This document shows positions 3,706-60,425 of a stretch of 64,000 bases of DNA, piece by piece. This DNA comes from a bacterium (GTDB lineage: Bacteria; Patescibacteriota; Microgenomatia; Curtissbacterales; GWA2-41-24), in assembly GCA_021813945.1 (NCBI GenBank), contig JAKAJD010000001.1, positions 137,744-201,743 of the forward strand, written 5' to 3'. The notes below the pieces were generated by a model that made no database searches, was not told the DNA's origin, and worked only from the letters and a program-made list of their open reading frames with translations. The translations under genes and the position numbers were made by a program. The stretch's first letter is position 1; each line of letters starts with the position of its first letter.

Positions 3706-4836
3706 GTGAAAATTGCATTGGTTCACGACGACTTTTGCCAGCAGGGTGGGGCAGAGAGCTTGTTTGCAACAATCGCGTCGATATACCCCGACGCACCCAT
3801 CTACACTTCCCTGGTCAACTGGTCAAAGCTTCCAAAATCAATTGAAAAAAGCAGGATTCATACATCTTTCATGCAAAAAATCCCTTTTGCCACAAAATTT
3901 TATAAATTACTACTCTCCCTTTATCCACTTGCATTTGAAAGCTTCAATTTTGACCGCTACGATCTTGTTCTCTCATCAACCACCAGATTTGCTAAATCCA
4001 TAGTCACCAAGCCAAAAACAACCCACGTTTCTTATCTAAACAGTGCGCCGCGGTTTTTGTGGAATCAAGATTCGCAAAATGATTATCTTCCGCGAGTCTT
4101 AAGATTTTTACTTTCATCTCTTTTTTCCTGGCTCAAGCGTTGGGACAAAGCCTCATCTTCCCGCGTTGATTTTTATATCGCTAATTCTCAAAACGTAAAA
4201 AATAAAATCAAGGAAATTTACAACCGTGAAGCCCAAGTTGTTTGCCCCTATGCCAACACAGATTTTTTCAATATTCCCAAAATCCACAATTGGGCGCTAA
4301 AAAGCCAAAATTATTTTCTTTTAGTCAGTCGTTTAGTGAAATGGAAAAAAATAGATTTGGCAATAGAAGCGGCACAAGATCTAGGCGCAAATTTAATTGT
4401 AGTCGGTGACGGCCCGGACAGAAAAAGGCTGGAAAACCTTGCTGTCAGCCGTAAGCAATCAGCAGTGAGCAACAAAATAACTTTTGCGGGCAAAGTTTCG
4501 CTGGAGGAATTGCGGAGTTATTATCAAAATTGTGTAGGATTAATTGTTACCCAGGAAGAAGATTTTGGAATCGCCCAAGTAGAAGCTCAAGCATGCGGCA
4601 AGGCAGTCATCGCCTACCAAAAGGGCGGTTCGGCTGAAACGGTTATAGACGGTAAAACCGGCATACTCTTTAAACACCAGTTGAAAGAGAGCCTAAAAGA
4701 TGCAATTGTCCGCTTCAGTAAGGTAAAATGGAAAAGCGCGGCGGTAAGGAGAAACTCATTGAAGTTTTCTAAAGCCGCCTTTACAAAAGGCTTAAGAGAT
4801 CAGGTAAACATATGGCAGAAGCAAACGATAATTTAA
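3706..4836 (+). CDS. glycosyltransferase family 4 (GT-B, RfaB-like)
   Basis: C-terminal E-x7-E motif region EDFGIAQVEAQACGKAVIAYQKGGSAETV. Probable start is GTG 3706 (VKIALVHD). The track ORF from 3673 would begin upstream of the TTGACT/TATAAT promoter elements. Confidence 0.85.
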   Translation: MKIALVHDDFCQQGGAESLFATIASIYPDAPIYTSLVNWSKLPKSIEKSRIHTSFMQKIPFATKFYKLLLSLYPLAFESFNFDRYDLVLSSTTRFAKSIVTKPKTTHVSYLNSAPRFLWNQDSQNDYLPRVLRFLLSSLFSWLKRWDKASSSRVDFYIANSQNVKNKIKEIYNREAQVVCPYANTDFFNIPKIHNWALKSQNYFLLVSRLVKWKKIDLAIEAAQDLGANLIVVGDGPDRKRLENLAVSRKQSAVSNKITFAGKVSLEELRSYYQNCVGLIVTQEEDFGIAQVEAQACGKAVIAYQKGGSAETVIDGKTGILFKHQLKESLKDAIVRFSKVKWKSAAVRRNSLKFSKAAFTKGLRDQVNIWQKQTII

Positions 4837-5915
4837 AGTTCGCCCTTTTCTGCGGAGGGTCCGGAACACGCATGTGGCCGATGTCCAGAAAAAGTCTCCC
4901 CAAACAATTCCAGCCCTTAATTGAAAACCAATCTACTTTTGAAATGATGATAAAGCGCCTATCGTCTAAATTCCCCATGCATAGCATTTTCCCAGTGACA
5001 ACCCGTGATAACGTCCAGTGGATTGTCAAACTGGCTCCCGAAATTCCGCTGGAAAATATCATAATCGAACCGGAAATGAGAGATACCGCAGCAGCAGTTG
5101 GTTTGGCAGCAGCCGTTCTAAACAAAAAATTTGACGATCCTTTGGTAGTCAGCTTATGGAGCGATCACGTCGTCAGGAACGAAAAAGAATTCATAGCAGC
5201 CATTGAACTTGCAGCAAAAACTGCCCAAAAAGAAGGTAAGTTTGTTAAAATCGGCGTCCGTCCTGCCTTTGCCAGTATTGCACTGGGTTATCTGCAGTTG
5301 GGAAAGATGCTTGGCCGCGAAAACGGAATGGCCATTTTTGAATATGTCACTCAAATCGAAAAACCTGATTACAAAGACGCAAAGCGGTTTACCGAGAGCT
5401 GGGAATACCTTTGGCACATTGGATACTGCGTTTGGTCTGCACAAAAAATGCTGGCTCTTTACGAAAAGCATTTCAAAGAGGCCTACAACTGTTTGGTAAA
5501 AATAAGTGATGCTTGGGGCACACCGAATCAAGAAGAAGTTTTAAAAAAGGAATATCCCAAAATACCTAAAACATCCGTAGACTACGCCATCTATTCCCAC
5601 CTAACGGGCGAAGACCAACTGGTTGTTTCGGCAGATTTAGGCTGGCGCGATGTGGGAACTTGGAACGAGTTAAAAGACGAAATGGCCTCAAAGCCAGAAG
5701 ATATCATAACGCAGGGTGATGTTTCCCACATTGACGTAAAAGATAGCCTTATTTACTCCACAGTTGAGAAAAAAGTAATTGCCGCAATTGGGGTTGAAGG
5801 CTTAATTGTCGTAGACACCGAAGATGCACTTTTAATTGTCCCCAAAGATAAGACTCAGGATGTTAAAAAAGTAATAGAAAAGTTAAAAGAGGAGAAAAAA
5901 GAAGACTTCCTCTAG
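4812..5915 (+). CDS. mannose-1-phosphate guanylyltransferase-like sugar nucleotidyltransferase
   Basis: N-terminus reads FALFCGGSGTRMWPMSRKSLPKQF, the ManC/GMP signature. Overlaps the GT4 stop by 25 nt. Confidence 0.75.
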   Translation: MAEANDNLKFALFCGGSGTRMWPMSRKSLPKQFQPLIENQSTFEMMIKRLSSKFPMHSIFPVTTRDNVQWIVKLAPEIPLENIIIEPEMRDTAAAVGLAAAVLNKKFDDPLVVSLWSDHVVRNEKEFIAAIELAAKTAQKEGKFVKIGVRPAFASIALGYLQLGKMLGRENGMAIFEYVTQIEKPDYKDAKRFTESWEYLWHIGYCVWSAQKMLALYEKHFKEAYNCLVKISDAWGTPNQEEVLKKEYPKIPKTSVDYAIYSHLTGEDQLVVSADLGWRDVGTWNELKDEMASKPEDIITQGDVSHIDVKDSLIYSTVEKKVIAAIGVEGLIVVDTEDALLIVPKDKTQDVKKVIEKLKEEKKEDFL

Positions 5916-13596: not shown

Positions 13597-13705
13597 ATTT
13601 AGTATGAAGTTTCAAAAAGAAGTCCTAGCACTTATCGCAGCAGTTCTTGCAACAGTTATAATCGTCGTTTTCATCATCTTCCAGATCACTCTTTAAATCT
13701 CTGCA

Positions 13706-13817
13706 GAAGGTCAGGCCCAAAGCTTAAGGGCAGGCCTTTGTGCAGCAATAATCTTAGGTTACGGCCTGTGCCCTTACCCGGCCAAGAACAAATTTGAGCG
13801 TCTTTTACCTCTTGACA
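13706..13817 (+). repeat. GC-rich hairpin intergenic element (copy A) upstream of mraZ
   Basis: GAAGGTCAGGCC (13706-17), inverted repeat TAAGGGCAGGCC (13725-36) / GGCCTGtGCCCTTA (13763-76), then CTTTTACCTCTTGACA (13803-17). Homologous to 59398-59550. Confidence 0.6.
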
Positions 13818-13826
13818 ACCTTCATT

Positions 13827-13866
13827 AAATGGTGAAAAATGGTAATAGATGGTGATAAATGGTGAA
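13827..13866 (+). promoter_or_regulatory. four tandem 10-bp direct repeats (AAATGGTGAA / AAATGGTAAT / AGATGGTGAT / AAATGGTGAA); candidate MraZ operator overlapping the dcw promoter
   Basis: Exact 10-bp periodicity, about 110 bp upstream of the mraZ start. A TTGACA -35-like hexamer lies at 13812-13817. MraZ is known to bind tandem direct repeats with 10-bp spacing in its own promoter. Confidence 0.5.
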
Positions 13867-13973
13867 ACTCACTATCACCATCATAACTCCTAGCTAAGCT
13901 GCCCGGAGTTAATTTCCCCAAAGGGAAGAGGTTGTAAGGGTCCCTCCTACACTATGTTTCGGAGGGTAAAAAG

Positions 13974-59397: not shown

Positions 59398-59574
59398 GAA
59401 GGTCAGGCCTCGTCAGCAAAAAGGTCAGGCCTTGACCCATGCCGGTTCCAAGAAAAAGGCCTGACCTTGAATCGCAGCTCCAGTTAAGGGCAGGTCTTTG
59501 CCCATTAAAATCCGAACTAAGGCCTGCCCTTTTACCTATCGCCATTGACTATCCAAAGCCGCATCAAGTACAAT
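59398..59574 (+). repeat. GC-rich two-hairpin intergenic element (copy B) ending in TTGACT-N18-TACAAT promoter for rplU
   Basis: Contains AAGGTCAGGCC three times (two direct, one inverted at 59458-68). A second inverted repeat is TAAGGGCAGGtC...GGCCTGCCCTT. It then runs CTTTTACCT...TTGACT(59545-50)...TACAAT(59569-74). The same motifs occur at 13706-13817. Confidence 0.6.
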
Positions 59575-59918: not shown

Positions 59919-60425
59919 ATGGTAGAAGCAGACCATCAAGACCAACGAAGACCAACTAAAAACGGGGTACCAATTGTCTATATCGACCGAGAAGGAGAAG
60001 GAGTGCGTATCAGTTCACCCGGGTTAGACTATGATTACACAATTCCAGGCCCATGTTTTAGCGAAAGATCAGTCAAAAATTCGATTGTTGCTATGGCTCC
60101 GGGCAGGGTAGTTTTTTATGACGAAATAGTAGATCCAAGACCCGCTGAAACACAAGATGGTCACTTGATTGTTTATTTACATATGAAACGAAATTCCGTT
60201 GAAGCAGATTGTCCTGGCCTCCCATATGTTATTGATCCAGATGGTTACCAAGGAGACTTCAAAGAAGATATTGGGAAAAAAATAAAACATGCAGCGGAAG
60301 ATATTCTTAAACAATCAAAAAGAAGGAAATATGCACAAGGAACTTTAGACCGGGCCAAAAAAATCGTAGCTTCAAATGGCGACTTACCTTTAGTTTTTGT
60401 CGAGAATTTCGATCTTGGCAGTTAA
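59919..60425 (+). CDS. hypothetical protein inserted between rplU and rpmA
   Basis: 168-aa ORF with ATG start and no domain recognised. It occupies the slot where some bacteria encode the Prp protease, but does not resemble it. Confidence 0.45.
   Translation: MVEADHQDQRRPTKNGVPIVYIDREGEGVRISSPGLDYDYTIPGPCFSERSVKNSIVAMAPGRVVFYDEIVDPRPAETQDGHLIVYLHMKRNSVEADCPGLPYVIDPDGYQGDFKEDIGKKIKHAAEDILKQSKRRKYAQGTLDRAKKIVASNGDLPLVFVENFDLGS

Follow-up and report, generated by a model that had tools for sequence, protein, structure and literature searches.

The 64,000-nucleotide stretch of DNA analysed here (below, the window; positions 137,744 to 201,743 of contig JAKAJD010000001.1, assembly GCA_021813945.1) carries clusters of GC-rich hairpins in two intergenic regions, one upstream of mraZ (region A) and one upstream of rplU (region B). 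We conclude that the two clusters are probably copies of a dispersed family of palindromic repeats resembling the repetitive extragenic palindromic (REP) sequences and REPINs of other bacteria, and that only one subclade of Candidatus Curtissbacteria, a group within the candidate phyla radiation (CPR), carries this family. As to the further proposal that an enzyme of the REP-associated tyrosine transposase (RAYT) type moves the family, we consider the chances to be about even. A first-pass annotation of the sequence had offered, among other explanations, a small repeat resembling REPs or miniature inverted-repeat transposable elements (MITEs), and it is this suggestion that is supported by a dispersed family with linked subfamilies, by presence and absence of copies, by copies in frame within genes, and by a RAYT-like Y1 transposase inside a cluster of repeat units in a sister species.

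The motif AAGG[GT]CAGG[CT]C (AAGGKCAGGYC), with no mismatch allowed, occurs seven times in the window against 0.08 ± 0.27 expected from dinucleotide shuffles, none of 100 of which reached seven. Five matches are on the plus strand (13707, 13726, 59399, 59421 and 59486) and two on the minus strand (59458 and 59521), and all seven are confined to two intergenic regions, 13707-13736 and 59399-59531, where the first-pass annotation had correctly placed its GC-rich motifs; allowing one mismatch adds only two weak matches, both intragenic. The true repeat unit is a 13-nt arm, AAGGKCAGGYCTT (complement AAGGCCTGMCCTT), which pairs with an inverted copy of itself lying about 20 nt away on the other side of a spacer. 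When 52 family members from related genomes were used to build a covariance model and the whole 64 kb was searched with it, the model matched at 59480-59537, 59415-59474 and 13720-13781 with scores of 35-54 bits, the next best match having E = 3. The window total is three hairpins (13726-13775, 59421-59468 and 59486-59531) and two lone units, all of them intergenic, in DNA of 41% G+C. Among general-purpose searches, Rfam at the gathering threshold returned only tRNA, Rfam at E ≤ 1 over both hairpin regions returned only noise, and a generic repeat finder applied to all 64 kb gave nothing beyond AT-rich chance pairs, overlooking the hairpin family.

In region B a lone unit, AAGGTCAGGCC (59399..59409, plus strand), lies 21 nt past the rodA stop codon and is followed by two hairpins. 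The first, B1 (59421..59468), is a T-type doublet whose arms, 59421-59433 and 59456-59468, form a perfect 13-bp stem around a 22-nt spacer and are paired in the minimum-energy structure; its spacer defines a minus orientation, and on that strand the model hit (59415-59474) scored 51.8 bits. The second, B2 (59486..59531, plus strand; model hit 59480-59537, 54.3 bits), is a G-type doublet; its arms, 59486-59498 and 59519-59531, include a single G-U pair and enclose a spacer of 20 nt, and the hairpin ends 13 nt before the rplU -35 box. Compared with shuffles, the fold of region B has z = -4.0. Region A begins, 10 nt past the stop of a 30-aa open reading frame (ORF), with a lone AAGGTCAGGCC unit followed by CA in place of TT (13707..13717, plus strand, an exact motif match); this unit looks like a REP-singlet-like remnant. 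Hairpin A (13726..13775, plus strand; covariance hit 13720-13781, 34.9 bits, E 8e-8) is a G-type doublet in which the 5' arm AAGGGCAGGCCTT (13726-13738) is joined by a spacer (13739-13762) to the 3' arm GGCCTG[TG]CCCTT (13763-13775). The 3' arm contains a 2-nt insertion, and because of it the expected hairpin is not the minimum-energy fold of region A, for which z against shuffles is -0.7; the orthologues of hairpin A have a perfect 13-bp stem.

Several details of the first-pass annotation are modified by these coordinates. It had described an imperfect inverted repeat of 11-12 bp and, in region B, a perfect 11-bp stem (59421-31 / 59458-68); the inverted repeat and the perfect stem both stand, but their lengths do not, the arms being 13 nt, the spacers 20-23 nt and the B1 stem 13 bp. 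The sequence CTTTTACCT, said to be shared by the two regions, does have exactly two occurrences in the window, but relatives do not conserve it at either of the two loci, and its region B copy consists of the 3' arm plus TACC, a flank common in the family. As for the same order of motifs reported in both regions, the TTGAC -35 boxes are real and conserved but do not form part of a fixed cassette, since they lie 8-27 nt from the hairpin across species; the common order is a matter of family membership and ordinary intergenic layout.

Most matches of a pattern scan covering one genome per species were single chance palindromes in unrelated phyla, and only genomes with multiple hits were informative. 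Among the matches listed, the same hairpin of 46-48 nt recurs in many copies in JAKALT01, CAYTEJ01, CAZEDQ01 and a Microgenomates metagenome-assembled genome (MAG), and a stricter scan of metagenome contigs added 21 further stretches with the hairpin (related loci are cited below by their L numbers). The deduplicated total comes to at least 61 unique hairpins from about seven species of Candidatus Curtissbacteria, so that the further copies in relatives for which the first-pass annotation had proposed to search do exist; JAKALT01 has at least 14 hairpins and the window three in 64 kb. The MraZ of JAKALT01 is 90% identical to that of the window, and the named homologues of the window's MraZ and L21 proteins all come from Candidatus Curtissbacteria; look-ups of these two proteins themselves gave identical DNA only, of no use in comparison. 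A Curtissbacteria genome at 73% MraZ identity has no repeat unit in 20 kb and no hairpin upstream of its mraZ. CAZEDQ01 is the same organism as Ga0075629 and Ga0209210, two JGI bins (contigs 99.9-100% identical). The CAYTEJ01 and CAZEDQ01 sequences (L009, L017, L034, L041, L042, L058, L097, L099 and L102) bear GenBank titles reading 'uncultured Gammaproteobacteria' although they are Curtissbacteria sequences, and one Ga0075629/Ga0209210 contig encodes KKR50704.1, a GenBank protein named as Curtissbacteria; the titles of these two MAGs are probably mislabelled.

An alignment of 52 copies, oriented by spacer asymmetry (TGTC...GGTT), shows most arm columns to be at least 90% conserved (in alignment A5, 11 columns are invariant and 13 nearly so); the spacer, 19-23 nt long, varies. 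Under search patterns that allowed mixed arms, 34 copies have U-A at stem pair 5, 16 have G-C, one has C-G and one is unpaired there. Stem cells are paired in 98% of cases across the 52 copies, and none of 500 shuffles reached the observed covariation score. At stem position 10, 38 copies carry C-G and 12 carry U-G, the U of these 12 being linked to one spacer subfamily. Spacers are also held in common between sites: that of B1 is identical at 17 of 22 positions to the spacer of a hairpin at 5024 in L123 (JAKALT01), which lies at a non-orthologous position between DUF4012 and recO, and the spacers of L034 and L058, on one CAYTEJ01 contig, likewise agree at 17 of 22. Such linked stem and spacer variants at non-orthologous sites are best read as the product of copying from master elements. 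Lone units and clusters both occur, the clusters resembling arrays of the bacterial interspersed mosaic element (BIME) type, and there is a weak flank preference for GGT(A/T) on the 5' side and (T/A)ACC on the 3' side. Extension of the stem into these flanks was considered and rejected, as the two motifs are non-complementary within single copies; so was the idea that the G-U wobble marks which strand is transcribed, since the wobble is inconsistent relative to genes and tracks a spacer subfamily.

Comparison of orthologous sites shows both persistence and change. The hairpin upstream of mraZ is found in the same place, with a perfect stem, in all four relatives examined (85-91% MraZ identity). 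Its stem is of the G-type in JAKALT01, as in the window, and of the T-type in two other relatives, a switch from G-C to U-A, and the spacer seems to be flipped. B2 has an orthologue in each of the four species compared, T-type in L128 and decayed in L130; B1 occurs in two of the four, being present in L126 and absent from L128 and L130. At the site of the lone unit at 13707 the relatives have a degenerate sequence or none (AAAGGTCAATGCC in L122; alignment A1), and the lone unit at 59399 is found in the window's species only, being absent from L126, L128 and L130 (alignment A3). L123 (JAKALT01) carries an 80-nt insertion with an extra hairpin in it, and both the window and L120 lack this insertion. 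From sites with persistent copies on the one hand and sites with presence and absence on the other, we take the copies to be long-lived at some positions and turned over at others.

The gene context of the 61 unique copies was taken from crude ORF calls of at least 90 aa. By this measure 49 copies are outside ORFs (47 between two ORFs and two beside the end of a locus) and ten are inside, and of those in an intergenic setting 37 lie between tandem genes, five between convergent genes and five between divergent genes. The flanking genes are assorted housekeeping genes, and among 94 flanking ORFs (best 25 of 62 Pfam families) no gene family is enriched beside the hairpins, only orthologous housekeeping loci recurring. 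The spacer-defined orientation in the tandem cases is sense in 19 and antisense in 16. A sense-strand U-tract (at least five T in the 8 nt after the stem) was found in none of 35 copies, the mean being 1.6 T in 8 nt, and canonical terminator-like sites in the window are themselves no commoner than in shuffles (27 against 23.8, and 33 against 22.6). Three of the ORF-internal cases are real genes with the element in frame, encoding FolD, PriA and an ABC ATPase. In three species the FolD copy accounts for most of an additional loop, roughly 28 residues long, between IDVGINVV and LVGDV; the single PriA copy lies between the 3'BD and helicase parts, and the single ABC ATPase copy lies within the domain. 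The in-frame hairpins are at L088 2080-2115, L041 2588-2643, L140 6645-6693, L088 3314-3361 and L142 8182-8228.

A candidate for the mobilising enzyme comes from a sister species. With E. coli RayT as query, tblastn gave a weak full-length match to an L136 ORF that has a family hairpin 89 nt away. The gene (L136 2337-2972; L155 5001-5516) encodes a Y1 transposase (Pfam Y1_Tnp PF01797, E 1e-15) whose best NCBIfam match is the REP-associated tyrosine transposase model (NF047646; 60.2 bits over profile positions 5-146 of 146), the IS200 model scoring 18.7 bits. The protein aligns over its full length with E. coli RayT at 21% identity, with the H-x-H motif and the Tyr of YI(Y/H)xNP in register. 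It is GenBank KKR50704.1, a Curtissbacteria protein whose annotation reads IS200-family transposase, and a PDB sequence search with it gave only marginal IS200-type matches (E ~0.6). Within 1.7 kb around the gene there are two hairpins and three single units, with a single unit on each side of the gene (in L155, hairpin 4741-4788, unit 4823, gene 5001-5516 and unit 5566, together with unit 3923 and hairpin 3985). The locus was recovered in three samples (L136/L155/L159) with the same neighbourhood and DNA that is 100% identical, representing one organism, CAZEDQ01 = Ga0075629, which also carries the orthologous mraZ and rplU hairpins (L125, L128); the surroundings of the Y1 locus have no syntenic counterpart in the window. 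The Y1 gene lies in a unit cluster of a sister species with both orthologous hairpin sites, and we propose that a RAYT-like tyrosine transposase of the Y1 (HUH) kind would have spread the repeat by acting on an intermediate in the form of a single-stranded hairpin; the arms would be able to form a hairpin in single-stranded DNA or RNA. Lone units would be decayed remnants, and the mraZ and rplU copies may persist since the extragenic space after a stop and before the next promoter tolerates them. Any influence on expression would be a possible by-product, whether the hairpin acted at the 3' end of the upstream transcript or stopped read-through from entering a strong promoter.

Some G-type units share an extension of 25-35 nt, GGAGGCTAAAAGTGGCAAGTTAGCA, followed by TTGAC (L155 3923-3960, 4823-4870 and 5566-5615; L138 3656 and 7891). 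Three such units in direct orientation precede three consecutive genes, the Y1 transposase among them, and may be promoter-bearing repeat units or the ends of a transposase element.

REPINs are defined as inverted REP doublets with a less conserved spacer, compensatory changes, singlet remnants and clusters by a RAYT (PMC3116915; PMC5581495). The REPINs and RAYTs of Pseudomonas fluorescens SBW25 and E. coli are like the Curtissbacteria element in their inverted conserved arms, variable spacer, hairpin and compensatory stem changes, in being mostly extragenic, in their singlet remnants, clusters and persistence at orthologous sites in related species, and in having a cluster that adjoins a Y1/HUH transposase with the RAYT family as best match. 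They differ in size (about 47 nt in total with 13-nt arms here, against roughly 80-110 nt) and in host, which is here a CPR bacterium. In E. coli, REPs are imperfect palindromes that lie shortly after stop codons, form arrays of alternating orientation with BIME structure and have secondary effects on mRNA 3' ends; their loops are short, their stem totals about 35 nt, they number in the hundreds, and they are bound by gyrase, IHF and Pol I. The Curtissbacteria hairpins are likewise extragenic palindromes just past stop codons, but their loops are not short and their copies appear to run to tens per genome. Rickettsia palindromic elements (RPEs), which Ogata et al. reportedly showed in 2000 to insert in frame into protein-coding genes, are 100-150 bp long and are not known to have a linked transposase; the in-frame copies in FolD, PriA and the ABC ATPase of relatives resemble them in lying in frame within genes, although there is no sequence similarity and the copies in the window itself all lie outside genes. 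In a literature search we found no paper linking REP, REPIN, MITE or terminator elements to CPR or to Curtissbacteria, and while the kind of element is well known, a miniature version of it with in-frame copies in essential genes, hosted by an ultra-small CPR genome, appears to be undescribed.

Several observations weigh against the REPIN-like interpretation. The density is low, about one hairpin per 20-30 kb, which would give tens of copies per roughly 1-Mb genome, whereas classical REPs occur in hundreds (typically over 100). No conserved 5' tetranucleotide of the GTAG type, as in E. coli, was found next to the palindromes. The Y1 protein, at 60 bits, is under the 80-bit NCBIfam equivalog cut-off, the two units nearest its gene are direct rather than inverted and in this more like IS200/IS605 ends, and tblastn found no Y1 gene in the 64-kb window or in the other relatives' loci compared. 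No matching target-site duplication was seen in the flanks, filled and empty sites having diverged too far for a clear answer, and no excision footprint was found, the single clean case of presence and absence giving no direction of change. At orthologous sites the arms are perfect while the flanks, on both sides of the mraZ hairpin for example, are unalignable among relatives, which calls for ongoing replacement or conversion, or for selection at the level of the host. Finally, hairpins between tandem genes tend towards the upstream stop, at a median distance of 30 nt as against 70 nt to the downstream start; 26 copies are closer to the stop and 11 to the start (p = 0.02), a bias that a role at 3' ends would also predict.

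This last point bears on the alternative that the hairpins are primarily functional at gene ends, as U-tract-independent terminators, 3'-end stabilisers or insulators, and have spread by selection for that role. The stems are stable, they start 2-30 nt past the upstream stop, and copies beside -35 boxes are kept with perfect stems at orthologous sites in four or five species amid diverged flanks; with canonical terminator-like sites no commoner than in shuffles, some other device could serve in their place. We nevertheless think this alternative unlikely, because the loops are 19-23 nt, a sense-strand U-tract follows none of 35 copies, the orientation is random with respect to transcription (19 against 16), five copies lie between divergent genes and about ten inside ORFs (three confirmed in frame), the distant relative has an mraZ without the hairpin, and common spacers at non-orthologous sites point to copying rather than to convergent selection. 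The terminator/insulator-plus-promoter cassette of the first-pass annotation fails as a canonical terminator on the first three of these counts. Intrinsic (Rho-independent) terminators have in common with the element a stable G+C-containing stem just downstream of genes, and they differ from it in loop length, in the U-tract, in the element's sequence conservation across sites and in its independence of the direction of transcription. With no terminator excess in the window and the hairpins placed just past stop codons, there may be a secondary effect on upstream transcripts, or even domestication; a terminator or insulator role would at most be a secondary by-product. A stronger form of the idea is that the hairpins have been domesticated and serve as boundary elements (terminators or insulators), sequence-specific and U-tract-independent, which a dedicated protein reads, perhaps the RAYT-like Y1 itself, and are also tolerated as in-frame loops in essential enzymes; this would explain the perfect stems at the mraZ and rplU promoters across species amid diverged surroundings, and we regard it as decidedly unlikely.

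The remaining alternatives fare less well. That the family is a miniature inverted-repeat element, its ends being 13-bp terminal inverted repeats and its mover some non-RAYT transposase (for example a DDE enzyme working on double-stranded ends, or an autonomous element of IS200/IS605 type, with the Y1 gene either coincidental or itself the autonomous copy), would suit the perfect inverted ends, the short variable interior and the dispersed distribution, as well as the sub-threshold RAYT score. IS200/IS605 elements have a Y1 HUH transposase, subterminal hairpins recognised as single-stranded DNA and end structures in direct orientation, and make no target duplication; the sister-species locus has a Y1 HUH enzyme too, and the direct units around its gene, with their common 25-35-nt extension, resemble the left and right ends of these elements. 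We judge this very improbable all the same, in that no target-site duplication is visible, no other transposase family appears among the 94 hairpin-flanking ORFs (best 25 of 62 Pfam families), the protein scores 60 bits as a RAYT against 19 bits as IS200, TnpB is lacking, the gene was seen as a single syntenic copy in one constant neighbourhood (three samples, one organism), and covariation that preserves pairing fits a hairpin substrate. Also from the first-pass annotation comes the idea of a shared operator, considered here in the form of a GC-rich palindrome through which a dimeric regulator would co-regulate the cell-wall (mraZ) and ribosomal (rplU) operons. Both window clusters do lie just upstream of conserved sigma-70-type promoters of major operons, but some 60 copies stand by unrelated genes, between convergent genes and inside ORFs, the distance from hairpin to -35 box varies from 8 to 27 nt, and the half-sites are 33-35 bp apart with spacers of 19 to 23 nt. 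The arms never mix G-type and T-type, which indicates base pairing, unlike independent half-sites; B1 and the lone units are dispensable in relatives; and mraZ already has conserved operator boxes of its own and, in one more distant Curtissbacteria genome, a promoter without a hairpin. A shared operator is on this evidence a very remote prospect. Least credible, to the point of being negligible, is a chance GC-rich match between the two regions: only the CTTTTACCT 9-mer and the order of hairpin then -35 box look coincidental, and the idea is refuted by seven exact units where 0.08 are expected, scores of 35-54 bits and the presence of the element in about seven related genomes.

If the REPIN-like reading is correct, several consequences follow. 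CPR (Patescibacteria) genomes are about 1 Mb in size and usually described as streamlined and repeat-poor, and a REPIN-like family with a candidate RAYT would extend the partnership of host and replicator to an ultra-small, probably symbiotic lineage. The family would also provide a compact marker for strain typing and for checks of assembly or binning. The in-frame copies in FolD, PriA and the ABC ATPase show such elements adding peptide loops to essential proteins, as in Rickettsia. For annotation there is a caution, namely that look-alike GC-rich palindromes upstream of major operons need not be a shared regulatory site.

Other short repeats are enriched within 80 nt of the hairpins in relatives, tandem GGTCTCT/CCAGAGACC runs 24-fold and TTAGCAACTAG-like motifs 6-fold. 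They come from hairpin flanks in JAKALT01, CAYTEJ01 and CAZEDQ01 loci (e.g. L050 1244-1285, L042 924-960 and L132 7625-7658), and the window has neither kind.

The promoters beside the two clusters are context and not part of the element. A consensus scan places that of mraZ on the plus strand with a -35 box TTGACA at 13812-13817 and a predicted -10 box at 13835-13840, and it is invariant in five species. Four direct TGGT(G/A)A boxes with an exact spacing of 10 nt follow at 13830, 13840, 13850 and 13860, with an inverted TCACCA at 13875-13880. The boxes (13830-13869) overlap the predicted -10 and show no change among the five species either; they probably constitute the operator through which MraZ regulates itself. 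In the distant Curtissbacteria locus L157 promoter and boxes are both kept without any hairpin. The mraZ 5' leader (13895-13973, GCTGCCCGGAGTTAAT..CCCCAAAGGGAGAGGTTGTAAGGGT) is near-invariant in five species, exceeding the neighbouring coding sequence in conservation, and has no Rfam match; an insertion of about 30 nt within it (13942-13971), found in the window only, folds into a hairpin with the stem CCCTCC/GGAGGG and repeats the ATGTTTC of the start. The 30-codon ORF MKFQKEVLALIAAVLATVIIVVFIIFQITL (13604-13696), which separates the PurF-like gene from hairpin A, is conserved in relatives with changes mostly at third positions and is likely to encode an unannotated small membrane protein.

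The rplU promoter, also from the consensus scan, lies on the plus strand with a -35 box TTGACT at 59545-59550 and a -10 box TACAAT at 59569-59574; it is conserved in four species, and the hairpin precedes its -35 box by about 8 to 27 nt. Further downstream, a 168-aa ORF (59919-60425) stands between rplU and rpmA, and a search of 5.8 billion proteins returned no homologue of it other than a truncated call of itself. The same slot holds unrelated ORFs of 77, 83 and 190 aa in relatives, and in Firmicutes it is occupied by the L27-processing protease.

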